A stretch of 64,000 bases of DNA from Chiloscyllium plagiosum. Taxonomy: Eukaryota. Location of the stretch: NCBI RefSeq assembly GCF_004010195.1, contig NC_057751.1, positions 7,840,137 to 7,904,136 of the forward strand, read 5' to 3'. A model generated the notes under the pieces. It was not told the origin of the DNA. It saw nothing but the letters and a program-made list of their open reading frames with translations, and searched no databases. Numbering within the stretch: the stretch's first letter is position 1; each line of letters opens with the position of its first letter. Positions 16,015 through 50,165 of this stretch are shown here, piece after piece. A program made the translations under genes and the position numbers.

Positions 16015-16224
16015 CTGAAAATGTGTTGATGGAAAAGCGCAGCAGGTCAGGCAGCATCCAATGAGCAGGAGAATCGACGTTTCGGGCATGAGCCCTTCTT
16101 CAGGAATGGGCTTATGGCCGAAACGTCGATTCTCCTGATCCTTGGATGCTGCCTGACCTGCTGCGCTTTTCCAGCAACACATTTTCAGCTCTGATCTCCA
16201 GCATCTGCAGACCTCACTTTCTCC
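16015..16224. mobile_element. Penelope-derived fold-back element, family A, with 14-bp TSD
   Basis: Inverted arms about 75 bp; tail ctctgatctccagcatctgcagacctcactttctcc; perfect TSD aagaatgaaccgaa at 16001-16014 and 16225-16238. Confidence 0.88.
16071..16108 (-). ncRNA. Minimal type I hammerhead ribozyme motif
   Basis: Minus strand cauuc CUGAAGA a gggc-ucau-gccc GAAAC GUC gauuc; identical to 58122-58159. Confidence 0.75.
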
Positions 16225-16704
16225 AAGAATGAACCGAAGACAACCTGGTGAAGTGTGATTTGCGGGAGGCAAAGGAGATTTCCAGATAACAGTGAGAGGA
16301 ACACAAGAGTTCAACAGAGAAATCTGGATGTGCAGCTGGAACCCGTGGTGGCATTGGCAAAAATAGTAATATGGGAAAGACATTGAAGGTTCCTTGAAAT
16401 GCTAAGTTATCCACGGATTATTTATTCCCCAAATAAATTCTGTATAAAAAATATCCGGCACTTGTGACAGAGTGATACTGTCCGGACCTCTAAACTACAA
16501 GGCCATAACATCTCTAAACCGGTTGACTGAAAACATCTGAGAATGCTCAGGAATCGGGGAGGAAGAAAGGACAAGATAAGAAATTCCCTTTTTGATATGT
16601 CTCAACAATGTTCCATCAATTCTTCAAGTGCTGATCCATCGCTGTTCCCTCCAGAGAGGCAACAAATTGTCTCTCAGATCCCGATACTGATCTTACTTCA
16701 AAGG

Positions 16705-16928
16705 TTTGGAGATGCCGGTGTTGGACTGGGATGTACAAAGTTAAAAATCACACAACACCAGGTTATAGTCCAGCAGGTTTAATTGGAAGCACACTAGCTT
16801 TCGGAGCGACGCTCCTACATCAGGTGATTGTTCACTTGACACTTGAACAATCACCTGAGGAGCGTCGCTCCGAAAGCTAGTGTGCTTCCAATTAAACCTG
16901 TTGGACTATAACCTGGTGTTGTGTGATC
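16705..16928. mobile_element. Penelope-type fold-back element, family B, with 13-bp TSD
   Basis: Near-perfect hairpin of about 90-bp arms (16747-16927), about 42-nt tail on the left; TSD cttacttcaaagg at 16692-16704 and 16929-16941; damaged hammerhead cores (ggagcgtcgctccgaaagcta) on both strands. Confidence 0.85.
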
Positions 16929-17486
16929 CTTACTTCAAAGGGGCAGCTATAAGACTCAACTCTAGTTCGGCTCTTGAAGCTGAATTCTTGGGAGATCACT
17001 CAGATTATGATAGGATGAGTACAAGTTCCACAATCCCCAAGATCTTTGCCTTCTCCATCTTAAAAGAAAAAAACATGGCTATTATGTTCGGAGGATGCCT
17101 CATGGGAGACTATCCTCGTTGTTCCTAGCTTCTCCGGCCATTTCCCGATGCAGAAATAGATTATTTCATTTTGGTCACAGTGGTAAGATCTGAGCTCAGT
17201 GAGGCACGCACACCTCTTCCTCCCTATGTACAGAGGGCCAGAATTTCCGAGGAGCTGCATCTCACACAAATCGCCAATCCAGCCTTTCTTCGTTACTTAC
17301 GGAAGGAGTGCTGCATTTCTGAGGGGAGATTTCAGTCAGCATTCCTTTGGAAACATGGAGCTGTGTCCATTCAGCCAATTCCAAAGCAGTGCAGACCTGT
17401 CAGAGGAAGGTCAAACCATGTACACCCACCACGTCTCTCGCACAGCAGCGAGTCACTGTATTGTGAAATGTTAATGGCACTGAGGT

Positions 17487-18060
17487 CATAGAGTCATGCA
17501 GCACGGAAACAGACACTTCAGTCCAACCAGTCAACGCCAACCATAATCCCAAACTAAACTAGTCCCACCTGCCTGTGCTTGGCCCACATCCCTCCAAACA
17601 TTCCTTATTCATGTACTTATCCAAATGTCTTTCCAATGTTGTAACTTTAGCTGCATCCACCACTTTCTCTGCGAGTTCATTCCACACACAAAACGCACTG
17701 TGTAAAACAAATTGCCACCATGTCCTTTTTAAATCTTTCTCCTCTCACATTAAAAAATATGCCCCCCAGTCTTGAATCCCCCACCCTTGGGAAAAGATAC
17801 CTGCCATTCACCTTATCTATACACCTCATGGTTTTATAAACCTCTATAAGGTCACCCCTCATCCTCCTATGCTCCACCTAAAAGCGTCCCAGCCTACCTA
17901 GCCTCTCCTTATTTCAAGGCCTCCATTCCTAGCAACATCCTGGTAAATCTTTTCTGAACCCTCTGCAACTTAACAGTATCCTTTCCAGAACAGGGGCGAC
18001 CAGAATGGGACACAGTACTCCAGAAAGGGCCTCACTAACATCCTGTACAACCTCAACACA
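17487..18060 (-). mobile_element. CR1 LINE 3' end
   Basis: RRMRGDLIEVYKTMRCIDKV in ORF 17677-17877 and CR1 3' tail. Confidence 0.85.
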
Positions 18061-19879
18061 ACCTGCTGCCCAATGCCAAGTACCTAAGTGTGATGTGCTG
18101 AGGGAGGGAGGGAATATGGTGGCCAGACAGTTAAGGTGGTTGAGTTGGACGCGAATGGTAGGATACCGAATGAGTAGAGAGGTCCTCTCTTTTGCCACCC
18201 TTACATACTTTTGGGGTGTCTCACTTCTGCACACATGGAGACAGATGCTCTGAGTGATAGATGCTCAGTGAGGTCACAAATTAGGAGTCAGCTTGGCTCC
18301 TGTGCTGATGAACCTAACTTCAGCCAAGTCAGCTTTTTCCCATCTTTCCGCTGCTGCACTGTTAAACAACCATTTTTGCCACATCCCCAGTCCATGTGTT
18401 TATTTTTCACCCACATGTTTCCCCACAATAGCATCCCTAGGTGGGAGGAACAATGAGTCATTTATCTTCACCTCCTGTTGGGGCGAGCAACCCAAGTTTA
18501 ACGCGGCAAATGTTTTGACTGAAACCGTTTAACTGAAAACAAATTAAACAAACGAAATAAAAGAACACGCTTGTCTATTTAGCTCAGCATCACACCACGG
18601 CAAGTTAGCTCAGCTCAGTCAGAGCCACCACCTTCCCACCCTCCCCCCAAGCTGTTTTTGACTGCTAACAATGCAAGCTATGCCATACGCCACCTGCTAC
18701 AGCAATCCTGACTCTTCAACATACTATAAAGTGTCAAGTGAACAAGCTATGAAACTAAGTTCCATACCCTTGTCATCACAGGCTGTCACACTGCTATATT
18801 TCTTGTCTCCTCGATAGATCTTCACTTCGTGTGTAAAGTCAAAGTTGAGCATCGTCCCATCTCAGGGTGCAAATGGCCACCAAAAAGTTCCAAATCAGCA
18901 CCTCACTCAACAACTATCTGGGCTTTCAAGGCAGCAATTAGAGGGAAAGGGGTCCATTGGGTTCCGTTTCGTTGCAACACGCACTTATTGCAGCCTTTGT
19001 TTTAACCTGGTTTGGTGTTTTTCTTCCCACTTCTTCTCAGGACTATTACTCTTTTGGGTACGTGGTTCCAGTGCACCGGCCTCACTTCGCCATAAGCACG
19101 ACACCCAGAATTGTACACAATGCTGCAGCTAAGGTCTAACTCATGTCTTGCACAAGTTTAGCATCTGCTCCTTGCTCTTGTACTCTCTGCCCCCATAACT
19201 GACACCTAAGATACCATGGAAGGAGTAAGAACTTGACATGCTACTGCATGATGGGATACTTGACCAAGGGAAAAGGTGACCTGGATCTCAGGCTCGCAGC
19301 TGTAGTGGAAAGATACTGCTGGAGATAAAGACTGATTATAGTTTGATGAAATGTAGAGAGTGCATCCTCTCTGTCCTTGAGCAACATCGGGAACAAAGGG
19401 AGTAGCTGCACGGTGTTTTTCTCCATCTTGATTTATTGCTTCCAACATTACTGGAGTAATCTAAGTAAAACAATCAAAGTTGTTTGCATCGTTGTATAAA
19501 TATAGGCTGACTGTTCGGCTCCAGAGTGTGCTGTGGGACAATGGAGACTGTGGCAGCCTCTCCGTGAATTCACGAGAAAATAAAACTTATTGAAACAAGA
19601 CTCGAAGTTTCAGACTAAGTAATTTGCTCGACAGAATCTGTAAGCTTCGCAACTGCTCTCTCCACCTGTCTTGAAAACCCTCACTACCATTCCTCACACA
19701 CATCAAGATCTTCATCCCAAGACCTTAGAAAGTCACTGTAACTTCACATATGTCCCAATAAACTGAAAATTACTTCCGTTCCACTCAATATTGAAAGTGC
19801 AATAGTTCCTCCTCAATATTTTCATATCGTTGCTAATGAACCTTTAACTATTTGGAGCAATTGTTGCACGTTGTTACAT

Positions 19880-20210
19880 CATCCACACTATTCCAAAGAT
19901 GTCATTGATAGACCAAAGAAAGAGTTGTGGATGGGGGCCCCAAGGAGGGACAGGAACAAACAATGTTCCATGTACCCCACAAAGACATGGGCGTGACAGG
20001 GACACGTGCGGGTACCCATGGTCACACCCAATGAACTGAACAAAGTAAGAGGAGTTAAAAGCGAACTTGTTCAAACTGAGGATGAGGTTGTGGAGAATAG
20101 GGATGGTTCAGGTCTTTTTCCCAGAAAGAAGTGGACAGCCCTGAGACCATCCTGATGGGGGATGGACGTGGAAAGAGATTGCACGTCCATTGTAAGAAGG
20201 AGGTGGCTGC
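19880..20210 (-). mobile_element. Penelope-like element reverse-transcriptase fragment
   Basis: Minus-strand translation LLLTMDVQSLSTSIPHQDGLRAVHFFL (PLE RT motif DV.SLYT.IP), then NKFAFNSSYFVQ and a decayed PQLFLWSIND (FLRYIDD equivalent). Confidence 0.8.
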
Positions 20211-21636
20211 AGCGTGCAAACTGGAAATTCTGAAACTGACAAACTAGTTTGCATTCTGCTCATCTCTACCAGTCAGCAGAGGACATTGTTGGGAAGGTCA
20301 TTCCCAACAATGGATGGTATAACCAAACTCTGTGTGACAGAATGCTGCCAAGAAAAATACTCCTTAAAAAAGGCAATTAAAATAATAAAAAGCACGCTCT
20401 CCTTTGCCATCACACAACTGGTTTGAAGTCTGATGGACTCAGAATACAATCGGAATGAGTTCTCTCTTTTACTTTATGGCTGCAAGTTATCCTCAATCGG
20501 AAGTGCAGTCAAAACTCACATAAACATCACTTCCAAGTGTTCCACTGTGATTTGCATTAGCAAGAAAAAAGCCAATGGCAAATATTTACACAGCAGCTCA
20601 TTTTAATAATTAATTCAGCAACGAAAACACACAGAAAAAAACACTATTTAACAGGAAGCTATTTTACACCGAAGTAATTAGAATTCTTGAACACACCACA
20701 CAATTGGCAGCAATCTCACCTCAGTCACAGAGGGCCACAACCACGACGATACTTGAGATGAGGTCAGACAGTCTCTGACCTGCACTGAGGAGACACGTCT
20801 CCCATTCTGACAGCTGCCAATCTCCTGCTCTTAATTCGCACATTACAATTTTGTCAGTGATAATCGCTATGAGGCATCATAATGGACTTCCAATCTCATG
20901 GAGACTGATAACGTGTAAGCAGCGCAAGGCCACCTGTACCACTTCCCCTGATCCACTGTTTGATGGCATGGATGCAGTTGAGCATCAGGGTGGTGGTGGC
21001 TGACATGGTCCACCCAACAGAGTGGCGTGATCAATCTCTCTCTAAGGATGTCCTGGGAACCTGCAAGTTCATCATCCATACTGCGAGCGAAGGCCATGGG
21101 TCTCTCTCTAACTCGTGTCCCCCAACAGGTATCCAATTGTTCTGGAGGGGAGTGGCTGATCAATACTACGAATGCCCCCACCAGAAAATCAGAAAGGGGC
21201 CGGGGGGAGGGGGGACGGAAATGCAGTAAAAACAAGACCCTGAATTGAGGCCATCCACCTCAGACTCTCATCTTGCTCCCTTCTTGGCAGATGCTACAGG
21301 AGCGCTGGCACCATTTGATGTTCCAAGCCAGCAGTTCATTCCCCACAAGTGCCAGTTGCAGGCAGAGCTACTGTAGCGTGGGCGCCAGAGAATAAAAATT
21401 TATGATACATCCGCTTCTTGGGAAAAATGAAAAGTTTGACTTGTGACATAAGGAGCGGGTGCAGAGAGGTAATCTGATACCCTGTGAGCATTAACGACAT
21501 GTTGCTTTATTTGCACCACGGTAGACAGAGGCAATCCTGAGAGGACCACAAATTGAGGGACAGACAACAAAACACATTCCACCAACCACCACCCTGCCCC
21601 CCCCCCAGGGTTAAGGAGAGAGGGAAAGGGTGAGGT

Positions 21637-21904
21637 CACGTAGAGATTTGAAGAGGAGGATGGATCAGAGAGTCACAGAATGATGCCACTTGGCCTGCCA
21701 TTGCCATGCTAACCCTCTGCAAGAGCAACACAGTTGGTCCAACCTCCCCCATCATCATCCTGCAACCCTGCACGTAGAGATTTGAAGAGGAGGATCGATC
21801 AGAGAGTCACAGAATGATGCCACTTGGCCTGCCATTGCCATGCTAACCCTCCGCAAGAGCAACACAGTTGGTCCAACCTCCCCCATCATCATCCTGCAAC
21901 CCTG
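21637..21904. repeat. Tandem duplication, 2 x 134 bp
   Basis: Units 21637-21770 and 21771-21904 differ at only two positions (tggatc/tcgatc, ctctgc/ctccgc). Confidence 0.95.
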
Positions 21905-22531
21905 CCAATCTGTCCTCTCGAGAATACAGTCCTTTCAAAAGCTGTGTCTTAATCTACCTCCACCAAACTTCCGTGTAAGGCAACTTTGAAAGCAAAATGC
22001 ATCCTGGCTGGGAGCAGTCTAGGTCAGCGATGACAGAGATGTTAATTTTGTAGTCAAGTGTCAGAAATGACTGCATGAAATGCATCTGCTTCTTCTCCCA
22101 AGTGTCATTACAAAAACACAGATAGTTTTCATAAATCAGTGACTAATACTTGGCATGAGAGGACTTAGTTTGTTGGCAGCGTATGTGTTTTTTTTCTCTC
22201 TCCTCTCCTCTTCCTTTGGCCCCAGTCCAGGAGTAAGGTTGGATATCAGCTCTGTTGTGTCGGGTAAAATACCGTAATGCTCCATTTGTGGAACACAGCT
22301 GGGCTAGCCAGTGCTTCCCAGTACCTTTCCATCCTCTCCTGGTTTCCCCTTTGGAGGGTCGGTGCAGATTCAATGGGTCGGATGGCCTCATTCTGCACAG
22401 TCAGGATGCTATGATTCTATACAGATGCTGTTGACTGGAACAGCATTTATTGTCTGCCCTTAAGTGCCCGGACTGAGGGAATGAACACTGGGGAGAGGGA
22501 GGCCATTCAGACAGACATGTAGAAAATCAGA

Positions 22532-22773
22532 GTCAAGGTGAGAGTGGTGCTGGAAAAGCACAGCAGGTCAGGCAGCATCTGAGGAGCAGGAAAATCAATG
22601 TTTTGAGCAGGAGCCCTTCATCAGGAATGACGGTCTCATTCCTGATGAAGGGGCCCAATTCAAAACATTGATTTTCCTGCTCCTCAGATGCTGCATGACC
22701 TGATGTGCTTTTCCAGATCCACTCTAACCTTGACTCTGATCTCCAGCCTCTGCAGTGCTCACGTTCGCCACGC
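22532..22773. mobile_element. Penelope-derived fold-back element, family A, with TSD
   Basis: Two back-to-back cctgatgaaggg cores (GAAA side decayed); tail on the right; TSD agaaaatcaga at 22521-22531 and 22774-22784. Confidence 0.85.
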
Positions 22774-22974
22774 AGAAAATCAGAACAGGAACAGATCATT
22801 TGTCCATACAAGCCTGCCCTGTTATTCAATATGAAGATGGCTGATCCCCCAGCTCATTGTCATGTTACACCTTTCTCCCCAGACCCCTCAAAAAATTTAT
22901 CAGCCAGTCAAGATCAAGACACTTGCCTCCAACTCCCCTTCTCTCTGTGAGCCTCGCACAACCTGAGAATCTAG

Positions 22975-23203
22975 TGCAGGTCGTTCTGTTAGAACGTGCG
23001 TTTTTTTTCCACGCGAATTCACCGTAACGCGACTGATGAATTGGGGACACTGTTTCTGCAGCACGGACTTTTAAAAACGTGTGTTGGCTGTAATGCGATT
23101 ACTGCACCAACACTTCAAGCACTGTTTCTAAAGCGCGATTTTTCTATAACGCAGGGTTTCACAAGAACATTTCCACTGCACCACGTTACAGAAGAACTGA
23201 GTA
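22975..23203. mobile_element. Decayed TcMar/Tigger-like MITE
   Basis: Imperfect terminal inverted repeats caggtcgttctgttagaacg / cgttacagaagaactgagta; CpG-rich interior unlike the flanks. Confidence 0.5.
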
Positions 23204-23718
23204 CATCTACTCTCACTCCACACTTAAAGACAAAACAGTCCCCTTTCTCTTAGCTGTTTTATATCAATTTTCGTCCATGTGGCACTGCCTAACTCCATTG
23301 CACTGCTGAGCGCAAGGGAAGCCTGCTTTCGAGCGATCGACCAGAAGCTCTTACTGCGTGGGACGTGCATTCCCAAGGTCTAAATTCCTGGGGAAGGACC
23401 CCCCCACTGACCTCACCACTGCCTGTTTTTCATGTGATTCAGCCGGCCTCCCCTGTAATTGACAACGAGGACCAATTCAGCAAGTTACCTGGTCGGCAAG
23501 TCACCCACCATCACATGAAAAGACTTGGACAGCGGCTCAGCAGAAATGCCACTGGGACATTCAACCAAGCTAATGTTCTGGGGACAGGGGTTCAAATCCT
23601 ACCAAGATAGGTGGAGGTCACACATCAGTACGGGTGCACCCCCAACAATACTTGACGTGGGACAAAGCAACCCGCTTGATTGGCATCCCCGCACCGCCTT
23701 GCACGACTGTCTGTGAGG

Positions 23719-24039
23719 TTTTTTTTTAGATTACTTACAGTGTGGAAACAGGCCCTTCGGCCCAACAAGTCCACACCGACCCGCCGAAGCGTATACCACC
23801 CAGACCCGTACTCCTACACTTACCGCTTCACTTAACACTACGGGCAATTTAGCATGTTCAATTCACCTAACCTGCACATTTTTGGATTGTGGGAGGAAAC
23901 CGGAGCACCCGGAGGAAACCCACGCAGACACGGGGAGAATGTGCAAACTCCACACAGAGAGTCGCCTGAGGCAGGAATTGAACCCGGGTCTCTGGCGCTG
24001 TGAGGCAGCAGTGCTAACCACTGTGCCACCGTGCCGCCC
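23719..24039 (-). mobile_element. Full-length young HE1/V-SINE
   Basis: tRNA head ggcggcacggtggcacagtggttagc (A box), ggttcaattcc (B box), V-domain, CR1-derived tail and an A-rich end. Confidence 0.92.
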
Positions 24040-24310
24040 ACAAGGTGTTTGCACATTTTCCCTGTGTCTGCATGTGCTTCCTCCAGGTGCTCTAGTTACC
24101 TCCCACAGTCCAAAGATGTGCAGGTTAAATGAAGCGGTCATGCTAAATTGCCCAGTGGCCAGGGATGTACAGACGAGGTGGATTAGCCACAATAAATGCA
24201 GAGTTACAGGGATAAGGTCAGCGGTCGGTCTGATTGGGATGCTCTTTAGAGGGTCGGCATGGACTCGATGGGCCGAATAGCCTGCTTCCACACTGTAGGG
24301 ATTCTATGAT
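24040..24310 (+). mobile_element. Older HE1/V-SINE, interrupted by the young copy
   Basis: Continues from cgactgtctgtgag at ~23704 into gtttgcacattttccctgtgtctgc. Confidence 0.75.
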
Positions 24311-24734
24311 TTACCTTAGACATTCATTCCCTTCTCCAACTGCGTACAGGGCAGCAGTGTGTACCGGTTTCCGATGCCCTGCAACAACACAGCAAAGATT
24401 CCTGAGACGGCACCTTCCAAACCCGTGAATTCAGTCACCAGCAAGGACGAGGGCAGCAGATACAAAGGAACATCACCCCCTGCAAGTTCCCCAAGGAGCC
24501 ACTCACCATCTGACAGGGAAATATATCGCCGTCCCTTCACTGTGGCCAGGTCAAAATCCTGGAATTCTCTCCCTAAGGGCATTGTGCTCTGCTCACAGCA
24601 CATACATTCAAGAAGACAACTCACCACAACCTTCTCAAGGGCACATGGGGACTGGGCAATAAATGCACCCACACCACAGGGACAGCAGCTGTTCCAAAAC
24701 GCGGCTTGCCCCCACCCTCTTAAAAAATAAAAAT

Positions 24735-24925
24735 AAAACGGCAGATGCTGGAATCCAAGGCTGACAGGCAAGAGACCGGAAAACCATAGCAAGCCAGAAA
24801 GCATCAGGAGGTGGAGAAGTCAACACTTTGTGTGTCCTGAAGAAGAGTTATACCCAAAATGCTGACCTCTCCACCTCCTGATGCTGCCTGGCTTGCTGTG
24901 TTCTTCTAGCCTCCTGCTTATCTAA
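24735..24925. mobile_element. Penelope-derived fold-back element, family C
   Basis: Inverted arms agcaagccagaaagcatcaggaggtggaga / tctccacctcctgatgctgcctggcttgct; decayed core cctgaagaagagttatacccaaaatgctga; same terminus as 61220-61510. Confidence 0.65.
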
Positions 24926-25382: not shown

Positions 25383-25396
25383 GTTGCCTGGGCAAC
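25383..25396. promoter_or_regulatory. RFX X-box-like palindrome
   Basis: GTTGCC-TG-GGCAAC, both half-sites perfect, in non-repeat DNA. Confidence 0.35.
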
Positions 25397-32052: not shown

Positions 32053-32430
32053 AAGATAGAGGAGCAGATAGAGGCCAGTCAGCCCATCCAGGCTGCTCCA
32101 CCATTCAATCATATCTGATAGGTTTTTCAATTCCATTCTTCTGCCCGCTCCCATAACCTTTGATTGCCCCGGAACTGATCAACTATCACTCTCTTCAAGA
32201 CCATCAAAGACATGTTCACAGAGTCACCACCCTCTGGCTGAAGAGATTCCTCCTCAGCTCAGTTCTAAAGGGTCTTCCCTTCACTCTGAGACTACACCCT
32301 CGGGTCCTCTTTTCACTCCTGAGTGGAAACATCATCTCCACGTCCACACTATCCAGTCCTCTCAGTATTTCGTAAGCTTCAATGAAATACCTCTCCCTCT
32401 TCTAAACTCCAGTGAGTGCAGACCCAGCGT
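32053..32430 (-). mobile_element. CR1 LINE 3' fragment
   Basis: cataagataggagcaga tail and caccctctggctgaagagattcctcctc segment, cf. 58500-58950. Confidence 0.7.
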
Positions 32431-32638
32431 CCTCAAGAGCACACCACAGACTTTAATAGTGCACACCACAGACTAAATGCCAGAGGAAACACCACAGAAG
32501 TGCTTCACAGGAGGCTCCCTCTTCTAAACTCCAGTGAGTGCAGACCCAGCGTCCTCAAGAGCACACCACAGACTTTAATAGTGCACACCACAGACTAAAT
32601 GCCGGAGGAAACACCACAGAAGCGCTTCACAGGAGGCT
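32393..32638. repeat. Tandem duplication, 2 x 122 bp
   Basis: Units start at 32393 and 32515 (ctccctcttctaaactccagtgagtgcagacc...). Confidence 0.92.
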
Positions 32639-32718
32639 TCCAAGCACTGAGGATGTCACCTAGACAGGGGACGAAACGTTTGCAACAAAAACTTCCAGCT
32701 CGGCGAACAGAACCACAG
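32585..32718 (+). mobile_element. Short hammerhead-bearing element, family D, probably Penelope-derived
   Basis: Flanked by cagactttaa(t/c)agtgc at 32569-32584 and 32719-32734; contains a hammerhead core. Confidence 0.7.
32644..32683 (+). ncRNA. Minimal type I hammerhead ribozyme motif
   Basis: gca CUGAGGA u guc-a-ccu-agac-agg-g-gac GAAAC GUU ugc: helix I gca/ugc, 6-bp helix II with one mismatch, ACGU helix III. Confidence 0.78.
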
Positions 32719-33114
32719 CAGACTTTAACAGTGCCTCTGCAGCAATACGTGCACACTGATTTTAATTATTCCACAATTTCTGCATGAGAATTGTACATTT
32801 TGTTAACTGTAAAGGAACTGAAAGAAATGGAGCTTCTCTTGCATTTCTGTATGACCTCAAAACTGCACCACAGCCAAAGAATTGTGCAATCCTGAACAGT
32901 AATCTCTACTGCATTATGAAATGCTGCAGTCAAATGGAGCTTAACATGATTGCACAGACACACCTGGGATACTAACCCACTTTGGTGATCAATTCTGCAA
33001 TAATTATTAACCCAATAACAGCGGCAACTCCTCCACTTTTCTTCCCAAACATCTACCAATAACTGGCTCACTCTTATTTGTCACCAGTTGGAAATTAAGT
33101 TGTTTTCTGAGTGA

Positions 33115-33602
33115 TATGCAAAGATTTACAAAGATGTTGCCAGGGTTGGAGGGTTTGAACTGTAGGGAGAGGCTGAATAGGCTAGGGCTGTTTTCCTTGG
33201 AGCGTCAGAGGCTGAGGGGTGGTCTTACAGAGGTTTATAAAATCATGAGGGGCATGGATAGAGTAAATAGACAAAGTCTTTTCCCTGGGGTGGGGGAGTC
33301 TAGAACTAGATGGCATAGGTTTAGGGTGAGAGGGGAAAGATATAAAAGGGATCAAGGGGCAACTTTTTCACGCAGAGGTTTGTACATGTATGGAATGAGA
33401 TGCCAGAGGAAGTGGTGGAGACTTGTGCAATTACAACATTTAAAAGGCATCTGGATGGGTATAGGAATAGGAAGGGTTTAAAGGGATGTGGGCCAGGTAT
33501 TGGCAAAGGGGAACTAGATTAATTTAGAATATGTGGTCAGCACAGATGAGTTGGACCGAAGGGTCTGTTTCTGTGCTGTACATCTCTGTGACTCTATGAC
33601 TT
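33115..33602 (+). mobile_element. CR1 (HER1-like) LINE 3' end
   Basis: ORF MQRFTKMLPGLEGLNCRERLNRLGLFSLERQRLRGGLTEVYKIMRGMDRV; (gactctat) tail. Confidence 0.92.
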
Positions 33603-34974: not shown

Positions 34975-35180
34975 TGTGGAGCTGCCTGTGTTGGACTGGG
35001 GTGGACAACGTTAAAAATCTCACAACTCCAAGTTATAGTGCAACAGGTTTATTTGCCTGTCCTAGCTTTCAGAGCGCTGCTCCTTCATCAGGCAACAAGT
35101 TACCTGATGAAGGAGCAGCGCTCTGAAAGCAAGTACTTTCAAATAAACCTATTGGAGTATAACCTGGTGCTATGTGATTT
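34975..35180. mobile_element. Penelope-type fold-back element, family B, nested in the LINE 3' UTR
   Basis: Same family as 16705-16928; back-to-back hammerhead cores at 35062-35093 (-) and 35101-35135 (+). Confidence 0.82.
35062..35135. ncRNA. Divergent pair of minimal hammerhead motifs (AGCU helix III type)
   Basis: Minus: gc CUGAUGA a ggagc-agc-gcucu GAAAG CUA g (intact). Plus: uac CUGAUGA a ggagc-agc-gcucu GAAAG CAA gua (U16.1 mutated). Confidence 0.68.
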
Positions 35181-36477
35181 ATCACCCTATAATCTTTGCG
35201 TGGTATCTTTCTATGATCATGGTATGATTTGCCTAGACCGCACACAAGACAAAACTTTTCAGTGTACCTAGGCACATGCGACAATAATAAATCAAATCAA
35301 ATCATGGAGGCTAGGGGGATTGGCCATACTTTATTGCCAACAGTGTCCAGGGAAGTGCTGGTGAGGTGGATTAGACATTGAACATACAGGGTTACAGGGA
35401 GAGGGTAGGGGGTGAGTCAGGGGTGCTGCTTTTCAGAGGGTGGACCTGATGGGCTGAATGGCCTGCCTCCACAGTGTGGGGATTCCCTGATTCAATTTCC
35501 ATGCTCCTGACTTCAAATGATGCAACTCTGAACCATTAAAAATCGCATCAAAATTGTTCGCTGTTTTATGAGATGATTCATCGCCAACAATGGTGCCCTG
35601 GTGGCTGACTGGGCCATTTCAAGATTAAGGTCAGGGTCAACCATACTGCCTTGGAGTCACACTTCAGGTCAGACCAGGAAAGACTGGAATGGCCGGTGTC
35701 CTGCCTGGACAGACGTCAGGGAAACCGGTTGGATTTTTACAACAATCAACCATGGTCACCAGGATTACTATTAGTGATGAAATACCAAGAGAACTGTGGT
35801 CGTGGGGATGCGGTAAATCAGAAACTTCTCTGCAAATGCTACCATTACTGCTGAGCTTTTTCCAGCAGTTTCTATTTTTGTTCCCAAGACTGAGACTGGT
35901 TTTCAATCCCAGATTTGCTCACTGACTTCCAAGTACACCAGCTGGTGTGCTAACATTTGAACCCATGTCCTAGCCCACAGCCTCAAGCGAGCCAATGACA
36001 CATCACAACCAGATCCAGCACAAGATCCAGCTCTTCCTGAGAAGGATGGAAGTAATCCTTCAGATAAGCAGGTAAAAGAAGATCAGACAAGCTCAGGAAG
36101 GTGAGAGGTTGAAGTCTGCATGAAGTAACAGGCCCGTTCTAAGGTACAAGGGGGTACCCTCTGCAATCGATGCTTCAGCAACTCGACAACGATTAAGTCT
36201 GTTCTCACAACATAAACTGTTAGCACGGTAAACGTAGAGGGTTGGCTTGCTGGAGACTGGACTTTATTTGTGTGTGCTCAAGCCAACACAGTAACTTGAG
36301 GGCAGTGGGGGAAAACTCATAACCAACGCGACAAAATGCTTTTCATCAGCAATCATTCAACAGGTGATGGGTAAGGACAGACCATGGTGCAGGAAGTTAT
36401 GTGCCTGATTCAAAGTTTTTAAACTGGAAGGATTCAGGCAAATATTTGCAAGCTAACATTTAAAAGAGACTTGCAGA

Positions 36478-39014: not shown

Positions 39015-39640
39015 AGAACATAGAATAATACAGAGCAGAACAGGCCTTTCAGCCCTCGATGTTGCGCCGACCTGTGAACTATTCTCAGCTCGTCCCCCTA
39101 CACTATCCTAAAATCATCCATGTGCTTATCTAAGGATTGTTTAAATCTCCCTAATGCAGCTGAGTTAACTACATTAGCAGGAAGGGCATTCCACCCCCTT
39201 ACCGCTCTCTGTGTAAAGAACCTGCCTCTGACATCAGTCTTAAATCTATCACCCCTCAATTTGTAGTTATGCCCCCTCGTACAAGCTGACGTCATCATCC
39301 TAGGAAAAAGACTTTCACTGTCTACCCTATCTAATCCTCTGACCATCTTGTATGTCTCTATCAAATACCCTCTCAGCCTTCTTCTTTCCAATGAGAACAG
39401 ACCCAGGTCTCTCAGCCTTTCCTCATAAGACCTTCCCTCCAGACCAGGCAACATCCTGGTAAATCTCCTCTGCACCTTTTCCAATGCTTCCACATCCTAC
39501 CCGAAATATGGGGGCCAGAACTGTACACAATATTCCAAGTGTGGCCGCACCGGCGCTTTGTATAGTTGCAGCATGATATTGCATCTCCGGAACTTAATCC
39601 CTCTACAAATGAAACCTAACACACCGTATGCCTTCTTAAC
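39015..39640 (-). mobile_element. CR1 LINE 3' end
   Basis: ORFs LQLYKAPVRPHLEYCVQFW and LEKVQRRFTRMLPGLEGRSYEERLRDLGLFSLERRRLRG. Confidence 0.92.
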
Positions 39641-41232: not shown

Positions 41233-42044
41233 GCCATTAAGGTCCTGCCCAGTCTGCCATTAACAGGATAGCCACCTTCAAATGGACTGGAGGACCACAA
41301 TGTTTCCTTCACCCTTACATGGGACGTTGGCATTTGGTGTCCATCACAAAGTGACCCTTAAACCCAAGTGGGTCTAGTGCCACAGTTGACAAGGTAGTTG
41401 AAAATGAACCACAAATACCTTGGGGTGCAGAGGTATTGTCTCTACCTTTGGTTCAGAAGGTCTGGGTTCAAGTCCTGCTAGTATACATGTCACAGCAGTT
41501 AATTAACAAGTTAGTTCAGTGAACCACATTCTTGTGGCTCTGAAATCACACATGGACCAGGCCCAGTGAGGATGGAGGATTTCTCTCCTGGAGTGACATG
41601 AGTAAATCAGCTGGGATTTTACAGGAATTGGGTGAGAGTTTCACAGTCACCATACTGAGGGTTGCTTTAATTATAGATTCACAAACTGAATTTCAACGCC
41701 ACCAAATACGGTGTTGGGATTTGTAACCTGCCTCCAGAGCCTTAGTCTGGGCCACAGGATGAGACAGCTACTGACATAACCACTGGGGCACTGAGACTTG
41801 GTCATTAAATCCACATGATGGAAGTTTGTAACATAATAACAGTTTGGTGAGTTGTTAGATTGAAAAGTAGATTTGACTGGGGCTCAGGGTGTTTGGTAGT
41901 GCGTGGCTCTACATAGCTTTTAGAAAAAGGGTCAGCAAAAACAAAGCATTCCAATACATGACCTGCATTGAGCTCAATGTCTCATCAAGTTACCCCGTGC
42001 GATAACTGCAGCTTATTGCAGACTTGCAGACCTACGTGGGTTGA

Positions 42045-42345
42045 ACTGTGGCACAGTGGTTAGCACTGCTGTCTCACAGTGACAGGGTTTGATTCCAGTG
42101 TTGGATGACTGTCTGCGTGGAATGTCCATGCTCTCCCTGTGTCAGTGTGGGTATCTTCCAGGAACGCGAGTTTGCTCCTACAATCCAAAGATGTGCAGGC
42201 GAGGTGGCTTGGCCAGGCTAAATGTGGGTTTATAGGGATAGGGTAGGGGCCTGGGTCTGGTTGGGATGGTCTTCAGAGGTTCGGTGCAAACCCGAGGGGC
42301 CGAATGGCCTCTTTCTGCATTTTAGGAGTTCAGTGATTTTCTATG
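42045..42345 (+). mobile_element. HE1/V-SINE, decayed
   Basis: gtggcacagtggttagcactgctgtctcacagtg head, V-domain and tail. Confidence 0.8.
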
Positions 42346-43419
42346 AGACAGCAAACACTCGTGGCCACAGGGGAGTTGAGTTCAGAGGAAAAGATCCACT
42401 TCCAGTGAAAGGGCAGTTTTTAAGTTTGTCAAAATTTTCAGGCCATCTGAGCTGGAAAGAAGCCTTAACCTATTTTAACAGCTGGAAAGTAGTCAGAGGA
42501 AGACAACACTCAGAGAGTTAGCATGTGTCTCGGGGAGAGACAGGAATGGAGAGAGCCGCAGTTAATGGATGTGCAAAAACACTTGGAACCTTGTCTTTGG
42601 CTCAGAACTTTCCTATGTGAAGACAGAAGTGGTATTTCACTGGTGTTGAGTGTCTGTTAAGGATTTTGCTGAGAAAAGTATTTCTTTTTTTGCTGTTTGC
42701 GCTAACATTTTCCAAATTGCCTTGTGTAAAAGGCTCTTCTATGAGTAATAAGTTTAAAATTAATTTCTTTTAAGTATATTCACATCCTCATACAGTAACT
42801 TCAATGAGAGTCACCAAGATAATCAAATTCCAAAACTGAAACTTGTGGTCCATCAAGCCAGGTTTTACTCTGGAAATTGACTTGCCCAGTATCATCAGCT
42901 GGGGACCAAACAACTCCAAGAATACTGGATAAAAGCAAACTGCAAGAACACACCACATTTCCAGAGCAAAGATATACCTGGTCAGAATCCTTTCTTGATT
43001 TTGGCTGTGTTTGAGTGAATGTGTTTTCAGAGAGGTGACGTGTGGAAGGATTGCGAAAGAAGAATATCCTTTGAAAAAAGTTGCAGGTTAAGAAGAATTG
43101 CATGCATTTTCAGCTCTCGGTTGAACACCAATTATAGATTGACGTGCCAGTGCAGTTCTGAGGGAGTGCTGCACAGGTGGATGGGTGGGCTTTTAAACTG
43201 AGACTAATCTGCTTTCTCAAGTGGATGGAACAGATCCCATGGTCCTGCTCTGGAGAAGTTTAAGTGAGGTGTCCCTGCTGTGCTGTCCAGGATTTATCCC
43301 ACAGTCAATGCCATTCTTTTTACTTTGTACACTACACAAGCAGGGTTCAGTTGTTCTTTTTAGCACGGGGATGAGGAGTCTCAAGCTGGTAGGTGCTGAG
43401 AGGGTTGGGGGAGGCAGAA

Positions 43420-43800
43420 GAGGGATGTAGGTTGGGGTCGGAATGGACAGAGGTGTAGAAAGGAGACATGAGAGAGAGGCTTGGAAAGAGTAGGTGTGCA
43501 GAGAGGAGAGTGAGGCTAAGGCGGAAGGAAGAGTTTGGGGCAGGAGAACAAAGGGGAAGGTTAGATTGAGGGGAAAGACACTGGTGTAGAGGAGCAGACT
43601 GGAGTCAGTGGGATGGTACCAATGAGATTTGGGAAAGAGGTGCAAGGAGAGGGGGGGCGGTGAGGAAGACAGGTGATGGGATCTGACAGGAGTGGAGTGA
43701 GTCAGAGAGGAAGGAAGGGGAAAAAGCGAGGGGAGAGGCAAGGTACAGGACAGAAGGTACAGTGAAGAGAGAGTGAGAGACAGAAAGATGAAGACAGGGA
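43420..43800. repeat. Purine (GA)-rich low-complexity tract
   Basis: Strong G/A skew on the plus strand; explains the Ser/Leu/Pro-rich 211-aa ORF. Confidence 0.75.
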
Positions 43801-44419
43801 CCATTCCAGAACCACATGGTGTGTCAGGGTTTCTAACAAATGACTCGACCAATCATGAAAACATAAACAGTATGTGTGTTTGAATAGGCCACGAGTCGAA
43901 CATTAATCAGTTCACTACCAACTTGGTTCACTCCTTCAATGAGATTCAAACCATTTAAAATGTTTTCAACTCAATTGAATTTCTCCTAATGCTCTATGTT
44001 AGGAAATTTGATTTAGTGGGTCCAGATTTCTTCATTGCTGCATAACCACAGGCCAGCTGTATTACTCCACTTTATTGCACGATTTGTTTAAATAAATTCA
44101 GACAGAACAGAACTTGTTTGAGGATCACTATAAAATCCCATTTGCTCAACATATGCTGCATGAGAGATGCTTTCAGCTTCCTATCGGCTGTTTATGTACA
44201 GGATTACATTACCCCTGATGGGAATACATGTTAAAATATAATTGTCCTAATTGGTGCTGCTTCTTCCTCTCAATCTCCAATCTGTGGGAAATTTAGTGAT
44301 TCATGAAGTTTGATTCTGGTCTTTTCTTGTCAGGGGCAAATGGAGGGTGGTGAAAGTCACAACTGCCAGATTTGTGAGTGACACTGACACTCTGTAAATG
44401 ACTCAAGTGTTTACCTCGT

Positions 44420-44640
44420 GAGGAGTTTGCACATTCTCCCAGTGTCTGAGTGGGTTTCCTCCGGCTGCTCCGGTTTCCTCCCACAGTCCAGAGATGTGCA
44501 GGTTCGGATGGGTTGACCATGCTAAATTACCCACAGTGTTCAGGGATCTGCAGACTCAGTGAATTAGTCATAGAAAATGCAGGGTTACAGGGATAGGATA
44601 GGGGTTGTGTATGGGTGGGATTCCCTTCAGAGGGTCTGGG
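44420..44640 (+). mobile_element. HE1/V-SINE fragment
   Basis: V-domain ggagtttgcacattctccc...ccggtttcctcccacagtcc. Confidence 0.8.
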
Positions 44641-45169
44641 AGAAAGACTGGGAGAAAGAAAGGGTATCTCCAGGTATCTCCCACTTCATCAGTGCTAACG
44701 GGGATACACAACAGATGTTGCATGAATGAAATGCTGGATGGATTTCTAAACTGAAATGTCATCCAACAGGTGACCAGGTGAAATGAGGTGTGAGTGCTGT
44801 CCCCTGCCCTTTCTCTGTGGGCGTGAGACCAACGGATGACACAAATAAAGCTGCAAGAATCCCAAAGGTGAGGCAAGGTGAGAAGATGAACATGTTGATG
44901 CAGAAGGACGCGGAGGCCAAGCTGGATGAGGCTTGCAGGTTGGAAAACCAAAGGCATACTTAAGGAAAGTCATCCTTACAGGCGTAGAATGAGATTTAAG
45001 TCATCGATCGACAGACAGGTCGGGTTGGCAAAGAAGTGATGAAGGGTGTCAGAATTTTCACAGGGAAAATATCCAACAAGTTCAACAGCAGACAAGAGTC
45101 AATGGGTGAGACTCAGGGACAGACCACTGAGAGGAGAAGCTGGGAAACGATCGAGTGCTTGACCATGAG

Positions 45170-45625
45170 AAACAAAGAACACCTAAAGTGCAGAAGCAGG
45201 CCATTCGGCCCATCAAGTCTACACCAACCGTCCGAAGGGAATCTCACCCAGACACAACCCCCTCTTCTATCCCTGTAACCCTGCATTTTCTATGACTAAT
45301 CTGCTGATCCTTGAACACTATGGGTAATTTAGCATGGTCTAGATTAGAGTGGTGCTGGAAAAGCACAACAGTTCAGGCAGCATCCGAGGAGCAGTAAAAT
45401 TGACTTTTCGGGCAAAAGCCCTTCATCAGGAATAATTTAGCATGGCCAACCCATCCTAACCTCCACAACTCTGGACTGTGGGAGGAAACCGGAGCACCCG
45501 GATGAAACCCACGCAGACATGAGGAGAATGTGCAAACTCCTCACAGTTGCTCAAGGCTGGAGTGGAACGCAGGTCCCTGCCACTGTGAGGCAGCGGTGCT
45601 AACCACTAAGCCACTGCGACACCCA
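45170..45625 (-). mobile_element. HE1/V-SINE interrupted by a hammerhead element
   Basis: SINE sequence is continuous once 45338-45445 is removed. Confidence 0.82.
45338..45432 (-). mobile_element. Family A single-arm element with 13-bp TSD and hammerhead motif
   Basis: TSD taatttagcatgg at 45325-45337 and 45433-45445; minus-strand uuc CUGAUGA a gggc-uuuu-gccc GAAAA GUC at ~45399-45432. Confidence 0.85.
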
Positions 45626-46859
45626 GTGACGGTCAAGAAGAATGAGGGATGGAGAGCACAGACAGAAAAGGGAAGGGGAGAGACCAGTGACTCAAATTGT
45701 GAAGGTCATGTGAAGAGTTGAAAGGTTCAAACAAGGAAAGTGATTGTGTCATTAGCTGAGTGGAATGAGGTGAATCCAATCAAGGGCAAGGCTACAGACT
45801 GTTCAGTTCAAACACGTCTCCTGTGCCACACCTAACATCACTGGGAAGGTGCCCTTTTAAATCTGAACGAGGAAGAATAAGTGCTGGTCAACTTGTGGCA
45901 GACCGCAATGCAGACCACCCACGTATCTGAACCTAATTTACCTGGTTCAGCTGTGAGATTGAATGAAGTGACACAGAGCTGTCAGGTCATCCATGTGGGA
46001 CGAAGAGAAGAAGCAGCGATTATTTTTTTTTTGATAATTCAGAGAACCCACGTCAGTCCTGTCTCCAGACTGACTCCCCCACTTGCAAACAACCTCCTCA
46101 CAGGCTTTCAATTCGTGCCATTTTAACACACTGCTTTCTCAAAATGGTCCTTCCCGCAGCCTGACAGTTCCCACAACAGTGAGAAAGAAGCATTGCCTGC
46201 TGACTCTGATCTGCAAAGATGGGTTTTTGGCTCAGCGCAGTCAGAAATATTGCTCAATCCCCAGCTTAACCCCATCTCACTTCCAGCAACGAAACATTTC
46301 ACCGTGGGTCTCTTGAGCCTCTGCCATAATCTCCATCTCCAAATCCCATCTTCACCCCTGACAGAAATGAAAATACAGCGATTGAAGATGACAAGAGGAA
46401 ACAGTCCCAAAGGCAGGAAGGGAATGTCACAGCAATGGCAGAAACAGAATTTGCTCCATCTCGCTAATGTCTACAAACTATCTCCAAGGGATAGTTCAGG
46501 ACAGCAACGGAATAGTCTTCACTCGTCAAATGGATGAAGCTCCACTTAAGATGTGTGGCAACATTTGGAACAAAGCAGTCCACTTGACTGACATTCCATC
46601 CAGATATTTCAGCGTTCACTCCTGCCACCACTGACACACAACAGCATCACCGTGCGTACTGTCTGAAGGATGCAATGCAGCAACTCATCAAGGCTCCTCC
46701 GTGAGCTAACATGTGACCTCCACCATCCAGAATGACACCACCTCCTGCAATTGCCCCTCCAGACCATGCACCACCCATGACTTGGAAGTATATTGACCAT
46801 CCTTTACTGCCGCAGGGTCAAAATCTCGGAACTTGGCACCTAACAGAACTGTGCATGGA

Positions 46860-47195
46860 CACATACGGCACTGAAACAGGCCCTTTGGTCCAAACTGTCC
46901 ATGCCGAACAGGAATCCTAAACTAAATCAATCCCATTGGCCTGTATTTGGCCCACATCCCTCTAAACATTTCTTTTCCACACACCTGTACAGGCGTCTTT
47001 TAAATGTATTTGTGTCCGCTTCCTCTGGCAGTTCATTCCATACACGTGCCACCCTCCGCGTAAAAAGGTTGCCACTCAGGTCCCTTTTCAATCTTTCTCC
47101 CTCACCATAAACCAAAGCCCTCTAGCTTTGGACTCGCCCTGCCCTGGGAAAAAAGACCTCAGCTATTCACCTCATATGTGCCCCTCATGATTTTG
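46860..47195 (-). mobile_element. CR1 LINE 3' end
   Basis: ORF GERLKRDLSGNLFTRRVARVWNELPEE. Confidence 0.85.
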
Positions 47196-47459
47196 AGCCA
47201 ACTCATCAACTCATGCGGTGGGTCAAGGTGCTGCCTCGAGGGCCAATGAATCACAGCCCAGCAGCGAGATCCCTGGGCTACAGAGAGGTACAGAGTGTCT
47301 GGGGCAGCATTTGAAACACAACAATTGGCCACAGCACTGTTGGGCAGACAGGAGGGATGGCTGAAGGTCAGATGAGGACACAACTGTCCTAGGCACATGC
47401 ATCACAGATGGTTTCATTATAGAACATGGACAGATTTTGTGGTCACAGATGCGCAATAT

Positions 47460-47645
47460 CCATGTGGCTCAGTGGTTAGCACTGCTATCTCACACCATGA
47501 GAGACCTGGGCTCGATTCCAGCCATTGGTGATTACCTGTGTGGAGTCTGCACAATCTCCCCATGGGTTTCTTCTGGGTGCTCCGGTTTCCTCCCACACTC
47601 CAAAGATATGCAGCTAGATAGACTGGCCATGCTAAATTGCCCCAT
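47460..47645 (+). mobile_element. HE1/V-SINE 5' part
   Basis: gtggctcagtggttagcactgc head and V-domain. Confidence 0.8.
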
Positions 47646-47649
47646 AATC

Positions 47650-48028
47650 CCCTCCCCCAACCTTATCAATGTGGATTTCACCAGTTTCCTCATTTCCCCT
47701 CTCCCCCCACCTTATCCCAGTCCCAAGCCTCTAACTTGGCACTGTCCTCTTGACCTGACCATCACCTTTCCCATCTATCCAATCCGCCCTCCTCTCTGAC
47801 CTGTAACTTTCTCCTCCCACCTTCATCTACTTGTTGCATTTCCAGCTACCCTCCCCCTCCCATTTGTCTCTCAGCACCCCCAGCCAACAAGCCTCATTCC
47901 TGATGAAGGCCTTATGCCCGAAACGTCGATTGTCCTGCTCCTCGGATGCTGCGTGACCTGCTGTGCTTTTCTAGCACCACATTCTCCACTGTGATCTCCA
48001 GACAGCATCTGCAGTCCTCACTTTCTCC
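47650..48028 (+). mobile_element. Penelope-like element 3' end (ORF C-terminus, pyrimidine-rich UTR, family A terminus)
   Basis: PNLINVDFTSFLIS resembles PLE ORF ends; C/T-rich tract; then cauuc CUGAUGA aggccuuaugccc GAAAC GUC gauug at ~47895-47932 and the family A tail. Confidence 0.78.
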
Positions 48029-49434
48029 AGAGTGTCCAGGGATAAGTTCATGAGTGGGGAAGGTTTGGAGGTACATGGTGTAAAGCGCAGGCAAGTGTGA
48101 CACACTTAGTTTGGGAACATGGTGGATGTGAACTGGTTGTACCGAAGGGTCTGTTTCCATGCTATATGACTCTAGAGTCTACTAACACGTATGACAATGG
48201 CTAACTAATATTCCCTTCATCTAAAGGAGGGTACCCTGGCTGTGAAGCAAATGCGGTCTTTCCTCAGCCAGTACTTGTGACGCACAATCACTAGATCAAC
48301 TAATCTCATGGTCCTGGATTTGAGCTTTGGACACCTGAATTATGACAGCAGTAAGCTCAACACTGTACATCAAAGTGCGTCTTATCCGTTGAAGGAGAAC
48401 ACCTTCAACTGTGCTGATGTATGAGAGTCAGCCTGATCTCTGTAAAATGAGCACATGCATAAATCAGGAGCTCCTGTTCATCTGACCCCACTCTTTATGG
48501 CCAAGTCAAGTCTGACACAAATCGAGGTTATGGCATTGATGAGTAGAAGCCATAAAACAGGATATTTATTCTCCCATTTCCTCTATGCTCATAAATTCAG
48601 ATTTGTTTTATATTTAGTGAAGACCTGACTTAAATATTACAAAAAAAAAAGCAAAAGCTGAAAATACACAGCTGGTCTGGTAGCATCTGTGGATGGGGAG
48701 TGAGAGAATGAGTGAGTCGTATTTCAGATCAATGACCATTCTCGATGACTGATCTATCTCAGCCAGACCCTCTCATCTCAATGCAGAGCTCCCCAAGAAC
48801 AAAGGCAGCAAGAACATTTGCAAAAGAAAAGTCAGCAAAATAGAGCAAAATAAAAACACAACATGGAGAAACTCTGCAGAACATCTGGACAGAGAAACAG
48901 AGTTAATGTTTTGAATCCAGTGTGACTCTTGTTTAAACTTTGTGTGTTCAAGGTCGAGTCCTGAACTAGCCAGCCAGCAAATCATGGCTGCCCCAACACT
49001 GTTTCACTTCTGGTCTCTCTAAACATGTGGCTGGGGAGGTAACTCTGAGATGCCCTGCAGTCACTCATGTTCCATTTACTGGCTGAGGTTAGGCCTGGGG
49101 TCATGAGTGGAAGACAGCCCACACCCCTGTCAGTGAATATCCAAAACCCTCGCCATGTAATAATGACAGTGGCAAGGGAGGTCACCACTGGAGGTTTTCT
49201 AATTCAGGTCCCAGTTTCACATGATCTGACGTCATCATGACATCTTCCACGTTCAGTAGCTACACTGTAAGATAAAGTTAACCCCTTACTTCAGATAAAC
49301 AACCTAAGCCATTTCATAAGATTGTGGCTGTGAAACACAACCATAGCCACATAAGGGAGACATCAAGACCTTTGACCCAAACAGGCTGACTTTCAGAAGC
49401 ATCTTCAAGGAACGCAGTGAGGCATCGAGGTGAA

Positions 49435-50165
49435 GGATAAGAAACAAAGAAAATCAGAATAGATAGAGGTCCTTTTTGGTTATTCCGCCATTCCATATGA
49501 TCTTGGCTGATCATCCAACTCCATATCCTAGTCACACTTTGCCTCCATAAGCTCTAAGAGGAACTCCAAACCCCTTTTTGAAAACAGTCAATGTTTCAGT
49601 CTCAAATGCTTTCTCAGGCAGAAGATTCCACAGCTCACCATTGTGAAGAAGTTGCTCATTGTTAGTCCTAAGTGGTTTTTCATGTATCTTTGGACTGTGA
49701 CAAAAACAAGTAATAGCTGGCAAAACTCAGCAGGTCTGGCCGAATCTGTGGGGAGAAAGCAGAGTTTACATTTTGAATCCGGTGACTCTTCATCAGAACA
49801 CGAAGTCATCGGACTCAAAATATTAACTCCGCTCTCTCACCACAGATGCTGCCAGACCTGCTGAGTTTTGCCAGCTCTACCTTGTTTTTGTTTCAGATCC
49901 CCAGTGTCCACAGTTCTTTGTTTTACCTGAGACTCTGACCCCTGGTCCTAGACTTCCCGTCATCAGGAACATCCTTCCTGCATTTACCCAGTGTAGTCCT
50001 GTTAGAATTTTATAGGTTTCTATGAGATCTCCCCTCATTCTTACAAGCTCCAGGGAATGCAGTCCTAGCCAATCCAGGCTGCCTTTGTATATCAGTCCTG
50101 CCATCCCAGGAACCCGCCTAATAAACCTCTGTTGCACTTCCCCCACAGCCAGGAAGTCCTTCCTT
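49435..50165 (-). mobile_element. CR1 LINE 3' end, interrupted at ~49700-49924
   Basis: ORF VQQRFIRRVPGMAGL...RMRGDLIETYKILTGL; sequence resumes on the other side of the insertion. Confidence 0.82.
49700..49924. mobile_element. Penelope-derived fold-back element, family E
   Basis: Inverted arms agctggcaaaactcagcaggtctggc / gccagacctgctgagttttgccagct; minus-strand guu CUGAUGA a gaguc-accg-gauuc aaaaugua aac (decayed core); tail on the right. Confidence 0.72.

Follow-up and report, generated by a model that had tools for sequence, protein, structure and literature searches.

The window considered here is a 64-kb stretch of the 3.56-Gb genome of Chiloscyllium plagiosum (RefSeq assembly GCF_004010195.1, contig NC_057751.1, positions 7,840,137 to 7,904,136), rich in interspersed repeats; coordinates below count from its first nucleotide. 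It carries many small type I hammerhead ribozyme motifs. We are fairly confident that these are dispersed, mostly decayed end-pieces of the pseudo-long terminal repeats (pLTRs) of three lineages of Penelope-like elements (PLEs). The hammerhead pairing was likely selected in the source elements, and cutting is predicted to involve a dimer of two copies, most likely within one transcript.

Distribution and lineages of the end-pieces

A strict scan, for CUGANGA, at least four helix II pairs and GAAA, covered 864 kb (the window and 800 kb from elsewhere in this genome). It returned 89 motifs, whereas five shuffles of the sequence averaged 2.2, so the hammerheads first noticed in a sequence-only reading of the stretch are real. 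The extra nucleotide between A9 and helix II reported in that reading is likewise borne out, with exactly one unpaired base present in 77 of the 89. The word after GAA is ACGU in 32 matches, ACAU in 15, AGCU in 13, AUGU in eight and something else in 21; ACAU and AUGU are the products of ACGU by CpG decay. The helix III loop is absent, and the source word is ACGU or AGCU in all families, decayed in many copies. The Rfam models gave no hammerhead match, either at the gathering score or at E values up to 10, as expected for motifs that lack the loop. Matches to Rfam microRNA families over inverted pairs fell below their gathering scores and were set aside. Genome-wide there are 94,086 exact cores of family A and 18,508 of family B.

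Copies were assigned with family profiles built from fixed-length seeds (57 of 64 for A, nine of 10 for D2), which replaced a first family A profile distorted by inverted partners. The wider sample comprised 1.4 Mb from further regions of the genome together with loci retrieved by pattern. The profiles identify 30 copies in the window, 17 of them between 16,000 and 49,900. Core and palindrome are both intact in six of the 30, and every core base plus the palindrome in four of the 17 (C3 at 16103−, 32647+, 35091− and 47900+). The copies are dispersed or inverted, and no head-to-tail tandem array of the motif occurs in the window.

The family A (subfamily A1) end-piece at 16013..16108 (−, C3 16103, H17 16076) has an intact core and ACGU, with a helix I of two pairs, a U·U mismatch and one pair. 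Its inverted head-to-head partner at 16108..16192 (+) is 5′-truncated at helix II and lacks the first core box. A family B end-piece follows at 16728..16831 (−, C3 16823, H17 16795), with AGCU, a mutated A9, and ATTAAA and a GT-rich tract after the cut site; the first core box of its inverted partner at 16846..16933 (+) lacks four bases at its end. The head-to-head family A pair at 22538..22728 (both strands, C3 22624− and 22642+) shows G12 to A and ACAU in both copies through CpG decay. Subfamily C, related to A, supplies a head-to-head pair at 24740..24918 (both strands), of which the + copy (C3 24837) is decayed (AAA AUGC). Family D, of the Penelope/Poseidon-type lineage, is represented by an end-piece at 32618..32742 (+, C3 32647, H17 32680) with intact core and ACGU and a U as the extra base. 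In the head-to-head family B pair at 34998..35192 (both strands) the copy with C3 at 35091− retains core and AGCU with a damaged helix I, and the copy at 35104+ has a mutated U16.1. The family A end-piece at 45342..45434 (−, C3 45429) keeps its core and has lost the palindrome (AAGU). A longer family A copy with upstream pLTR sequence lies at 47830..47991 (+, 5′ limit approximate, C3 47900, H17 47927); its core and ACGU are intact and it is the sole copy reading GAUUG. The head-to-head family E pair at 49703..49890 (both strands, C3 49796−) has G12 to A in both members and decayed palindromes (AUGU and AUAU). Beyond the span of the earlier reading, family A copies with intact core and ACGU occur at 6358..6452 (+, C3 6368) and, of subfamily A1, at 58064..58159 (−, C3 58154).

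The families had been described as four or five unrelated ones. The E1 profile also matches 123 of 162 A copies, and A, C and E have common sequence 3′ of the cut site. The D groups cross-match one another, B and D show no cross-matches to A or E, and B stands alone. Since cross-matches join only A, C and E, three lineages (A/C/E, B and D) are recognized instead, with A, C and E homologous. A and D copies are preceded by a reverse transcriptase (RT) domain (PF00078), B and E copies by GIY-YIG-type reading frames. Parts of these frames read N, and no element was observed intact over its full length. A CX4CxxC linker is present in the A- and B-type proteins and in the E2-linked frame and is absent from the D frame read. 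In the parts of the published accounts used here and below, a CX2-5CxxC linker between RT and endonuclease marks Neptune/Nematis elements (PMC8557442). An RT followed by a C-terminal GIY-YIG is shared with endonuclease-bearing PLEs of both the Neptune/Nematis and the Penelope/Poseidon type, the zinc-finger-like linker aligning A, E and B, though not D, with the former (PMC8557442). Placement between the Neptune and Poseidon clades comes here from the linker motif and pairwise similarity, not from a tree of named references.

The ends of the copies agree with this identity. Head-to-head pairs number 97 among 526 copies. The 3′ ends have modes at 62-65 and 99-100 nt after the cut site in A1 and at 56-59 and 94-98 nt in B1, giving two end points 36-38 nt apart. 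Inverted 5′-truncated partners and an optional tail of 30-40 bp are known PLE traits, and the present elements resemble endonuclease-bearing PLEs in both (PMC8557442).

Other repeats adjoin some of the copies. The family A copy at 58064-58159 lies between the arms of a perfect 90-nt inverted duplication (57588-57677 and 58334-58423), which adjoins its tail. The duplication continues as a more diverged inverted match and is possibly a target inversion-duplication from insertion. Directly upstream of the family D hammerhead are two near-identical 122-nt units (32393-32638), whose appearance suggests that part of the upstream D pLTR was duplicated. A tandem pair of 134-nt units that are 98% alike is found at 21637-21905. 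Reading frames at 10735-11376 (−), 33011-33481 (+) and 39098-39496 (−) resemble what we take to be C-terminal pieces of CR1/L2-type long interspersed nuclear element reverse transcriptases, and several families like short interspersed nuclear elements are also present.

Helix pairing and the helix III word

The pairings proposed for the individual families hold in most cases. Helix II is confirmed for A (GGGC/GCCC), B (GGAGC/GCUCC) and D (GUC.CCU/AGG.GAC), as is helix I for B (CAC/GUG), D (GCA/UGC) and E (GUU/AAC). Two proposals do not survive. The family A helix I given as cauuc/gauug exists in a single copy, that at 47900; subfamilies A1, A2, A4 and A9 most often have U·U as the third pair, with no pairing at the fifth. 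The family E helix II given as gaguc/gacuc is pieced together from the pair of E copies at 49,700-49,890. The helix III word is ACGU in A and D and AGCU in B, as had been stated. For E the stated ACGU is not what the window holds, the two copies reading AUGU and AUAU. The central pair in 25 E loci retrieved elsewhere is CG in 10, CA in 10, TG in one, TA in two, another pair in two and GC in none; because this is a CpG decay series that never includes GC, the source word of E was likely ACGU.

One A subfamily, with the helix II loop CUGU (locus L069 and others), carries GAAUC after the cut site, which restores as U-A the third helix I pair that is U·U in the other A subfamilies. Copies of it lie on contig C1 at 12,153,322 and 12,172,767.

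In the subfamily clustering, three clusters that were misaligned or mixed, one of them from D (two rows) and the others of four and 14 rows out of 281, were left out. The entire catalytic core (CUGANGA and GAAA..UH in type I order) is kept by the majority sequences of 12 of 13 subfamilies; in B0 the majority has G8 to A, at a CpG. Position 10.1-11.1 is G-C in all 30 natural copy rows, a count fixed in part by the search pattern, and in all eight subfamily majorities it is G-C or, through CpG decay, G·U.

Covariation was measured by permutation tests and by counts of structure pairs, neither of which allows for relatedness. In the eight subfamily majorities, 31 of 32 helix II positions and 23 of 24 helix I positions are paired between cognate strands; when strands are swapped the fractions fall to 53% and 45%, respectively. 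The permutation p values of about 2e-4 for helix II and 1e-4 for helix I overstate significance because the subfamilies are related. Taken by the three lineages, the cognate order is the best of six, the lowest attainable p being 1/6. Within 30 distinct natural E, A and C copies there are 19 cells with two-sided changes against 7.6 in shuffles, a value reached in none of 500; examples are G-C/A-U at 10.2 and U-A/C-G at 2.1 and 2.2. Two measures robust to relatedness were not significant in these E, A and C copies: the number of pairs with a two-sided change was reached in 97 of 500 shuffles and that of further pair types in 497 of 500. Together the cognate pairing and the two-sided changes support the earlier suggestion that the structure was under selection, and to us a sound reading of these alignments is that such selection acted in the source elements. 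Covarying families of Penelope hammerheads have already been published (PMC4209133).

Does the difference between ACGU and AGCU matter? A15.1 and U16.1 are invariant in the core, which thus fixes half of the palindrome and leaves only four possible helix III words. The sequence-only reading suggested that the ACGU/AGCU switch could keep families from cross-dimerizing. Its physical part holds to the extent that a mixed helix III would destabilize heterodimers with B; selection for that effect is weakly supported. Pairings were scored over 13 clustered subfamilies, leaving out the mixed A0 and small B3 groups, and subfamily C, whose majority is ACAU, was given the word ACGU on the CpG-decay reading. 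The word is fixed in each family (94,086 A cores with ACGU and seven with AGCU; 18,508 B cores with AGCU and none with ACGU), C·C and G·G mismatches make a mixed helix III about 8 kcal/mol worse, and all four B heterodimers come out at +9 to +22 kcal/mol. Helix-III-only pairing among ACGU families may occur, three of six such heterodimers scoring −1.2 to −3.5. The core-closing helix I pair is kept in both cores only in A/C with B (15 of 61 between-family pairings), which is where helix III differs. Fixation of the word inside a family is nonetheless explained by descent, and a single difference across three lineages is no proof of selection. As a family word, AGCU was observed in lineage B alone; the first 100 of 46,886 generic AGCU matches are all B-type. 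Two of the four palindromes are unused and no AAUU family was found (561 matches against 191 in the control, those listed representing mutated copies or chance matches; no separate search was made for AUAU). A/C/E and D both have ACGU despite having the most distant proteins. Scored on its first two base pairs, helix I loses one of them in one core or both whenever two different families are paired (61 of 61 combinations, 31 of them with ACGU in common), and it stays compatible in all 17 combinations within a family. The element layout moreover favours dimers in cis, and the published dimer route is through tandem copies within one RNA (PMC6155905, PMC6765202). Selection of the two words to stop co-expressed families forming mixed dimers in trans is therefore improbable in our view. 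Most likely the difference is one compensatory change, functionally equivalent, that was fixed in lineage B. The insulation idea is not stated in the literature searched on heterodimers, sharks and start sites, which leaves most subscription papers outside its reach.

Transcript ends and the role of the ribozyme

Where the copies begin is informative on how they were made. The 5′ end falls between −5 and +12 nt of C3 in 132 of 280 A copies, 28 of 81 B copies and 35 of 75 E1 copies, and within 3 nt of the cut site in only 11, two and five of them, respectively. Because the copies do not start at the cut site, cut RNA is unlikely to have been the usual template. Locus retrieval was biased toward whole hammerheads, which bears on the 5′-end modes and upstream-box counts that follow; the end counts (A/B/E1/D, 280/81/75/28) are unbiased. 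Among young copies the 5′ mode is an A four bases before C3 in family A and an A eight bases before C3 in family B. Genome-wide, 7,516 of the 27,101 A1 cores that reach the modal A are preceded by a non-element base, and it is also where RNA reads over host-transcribed A copies break off. The excess of G at the position preceding it (G 4,544; A or T 2,972; C 19,585) might be a trace of cap copying but was set aside, since G is common before neighbouring ends and inverted partners give G by microhomology.

TATAAA stands at −38/−40 in 29 of 34 long B copies, and TATAAA or CATAAA at −33/−35 in long E copies (three of each). The upstream box lies 29-33 nt before the modal A in all three of A, B and E. 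For families A, C and E the modal A forms the outermost pair of helix I, the 5′ strand of which reads TCA(G/T)T(C/T) and resembles an initiator. We infer that a TATA-type promoter starts the RNA at helix I or a few bases before it. TATA and initiator-like motifs are described in a rotifer pLTR (PMC3846280), and a start site and an intron in Drosophila virilis Penelope (PMC2377424). A pile-up of genomic 5′ ends at the start site is not stated in the literature searched.

A probable other end of the RNA is visible in family B. In RNA reads from run X19, of which about 2% were sampled, non-genomic A tails occur in 264 and 333 family B reads at locus L063, positions 1960-1963, between 12 and 15 nt downstream of ATTAAA and some 30 nt beyond the cut site; either element or host transcripts could be their source. 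Read depth is flat across the cut site of this locus at 1931/1932, with no drop. We infer that family B RNA ends shortly after the hammerhead of the second pLTR, leaving one hammerhead at each RNA end. AATAAA or ATTAAA with a GT-rich tract is seen at family B ends (L063:1943-1963 and, in the window, 16728-16795 on the − strand and 35132-35192 on the + strand).

The segment order of TATA box, start, hammerhead, poly(A) site and two priming sites suggests that the hammerhead is present at both RNA ends. Because 5′ ends fall at the ribozyme edge and poly(A) lies past an uncut site, the hammerhead is likely in the terminally repeated part of the RNA, with a dimer formed in cis. With odds that we put at about even, the hammerhead occupies a segment like retroviral R that begins at a TATA-directed start at or just before helix I and ends, at least in B, at poly(A) 30 nt past the cut site. 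Its terminal copies would form a double hammerhead that removes cap and tail, and the short genomic copies would be run-off cDNAs, like strong-stop DNA, that record the start site. The initiator of families A, C and E would then be the helix I 5′ strand and would limit that helix to four pairs.

The steps may be envisaged as follows. Transcription from the upstream pLTR would start at helix I and end past the downstream hammerhead. The element protein would prime reverse transcription at a point 60-100 nt beyond the cut site, as for the anole element discussed below (PMC11167929), and internal priming near the 5′ end of uncleaved RNA would run off at the start site to give the short copies, solo or inverted. 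At some stage, probably with the help of protein, the two terminal hammerheads would pair, exchange strands and cut. Helix III and both helices I would be intermolecular, as the topology of a type I double hammerhead (PMC4209133) and the hammerhead fold require. Double cleavage would leave a unit-length, circularizable RNA; Cervera and de la Peña proposed unit-length RNA circles (PMC4209133). With the motif at both ends of one RNA, insulation against dimers between families would be largely unnecessary.

Several observations weigh against this R-like arrangement or the reading behind it. Family D gives little guidance. The 5′ end is near C3 in three of 28 copies and near the cut site in one, 16 are long and the numbers are too few for a pile-up, and the upstream-box pattern tried for D matched no copy. 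In family A the box is TTTATC at about −35/−37 in 21 of 53 long copies, which is only TATA-like, and no family A poly(A) site appears among the loose read ends listed. Read ends do not accumulate at the cut site, a result that fits slow or protein-gated cleavage, or none; poly(A)-primed libraries would miss cut RNA. Predicted folding does not give the active fold as the minimum-energy structure for any homodimer. Lastly, mismatch rates are lower in the core than in the 3′ flank (0.037 and 0.070 at C/G sites in A; 0.032 and 0.072 at A/T sites in B).

Long D copies, which are proportionally commoner than in the other families, carry TATAAATA 48-50 nt before C3; that spacing would put a D start some 18-20 nt ahead of the core, at a greater distance than in families A, B and E. 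Energies of forced whole-dimer structures were judged uninformative on catalysis, because the model penalizes closing the core.

Two other explanations need to be considered. The motif might be kept for a role other than cleavage, such as protein binding or a translation or start-site structure at the RNA 5′ end, with part of the helix I covariation being initiator sequence. U at position 17 is the poorest base for cleavage, and it is found in E, B0 and one D subfamily. The 5′ strand of helix I in A, C and E resembles the initiator consensus, with pairing stopping after the A where copies begin, and the most abundant subfamilies tolerate U·U in helix I. Insertion in vitro has no need of cleavage (PMC11167929), and Naiads do without the motif (PMC8557442). 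Set against this, majorities of 12 of 13 subfamilies retain the full catalytic core, and a promoter constraint cannot account for helix I because its 3′ strand tracks the 5′ strand. The anole motif, furthermore, cleaves with protein and shows C3/G8 rescue (PMC11167929). We regard a non-cleavage role as unlikely. The remaining proposal, that some inserted copies are under host selection as ribozymes or RNA 3′-end signals, could draw on the lower core mismatch rate and on family B ends being used as poly(A) sites in reads from several variants. Core or palindrome is lost, however, in 13 of the 17 copies of the 16,000-49,900 span, and the palindrome CpG of family A decays as other CpGs do, being kept in 118 of 265 copies compared with 146 of 253, 155 of 271 and 104 of 262 at three others. 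Potential partners lie on opposite strands, since neighbouring copies are mostly inverted. The lower core mismatch could reflect weak selection after insertion; we put it down to subfamily variation not resolved by the profiles and alignment-end bias, and host selection seems to us very unlikely indeed.

Comparison with known elements

The closest precedent is the minimal hammerhead of metazoan PLE pLTRs (PMC4209133). It is likewise type I, with no helix III loop and a palindrome at 15.2-16.2, one extra base between 9 and 10.1, G10.1-C11.1 and a short helix I. Several covarying families per genome, mostly as single truncated copies, with opposite-strand pairs, are also common to both. Covarying families, extra base, G10.1-C11.1 and palindrome were thus all described in 2014. 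The differences are that family A has a helix II of only 4 bp and a U·U in helix I, and that more than 110,000 exact cores are present here as opposed to 2,000-9,000 motifs in that study, which, in the parts drawn on, does not place a start site and poly(A) site around the motif.

PAc, a Poseidon element of Anolis (Frangieh et al. 2024, PMC11167929), is alike in having two internal RT start points and a tail of 30-40 nt, compared with 36-38 nt here. Internal priming and the use of uncleaved RNA have been shown in vitro for it, uncleaved RNA being the main template, and there as here no reads end at the cut site (PMC11167929). Its open reading frame starts at helix II, whereas in A and B a stop soon follows any ATG in the motif, and the available text describes no genomic 5′-end pile-up at a predicted start site (PMC11167929). 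Non-LTR retrozymes and amphibian satellite hammerheads (PMC7229834; bioRxiv 10.64898/2026.07.22.740005) share the type I form and a weak palindromic helix III and work better as dimers within one RNA. They differ in forming head-to-tail arrays, often with canonical loop contacts, where the present copies are dispersed or head-to-head.

What the present analysis adds to the 2014 description (PMC4209133) is mainly the very high copy numbers and the lead on start site and poly(A). The purpose of the Penelope hammerhead has been called ‘still unclear’ (PMC8557442). If the motif does lie at both RNA ends, the identity of the dimer partner, the short helix I and the origin of the solo copies would be explained together. 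For the host, the tens of thousands of family B copies could give its transcripts 3′ ends.

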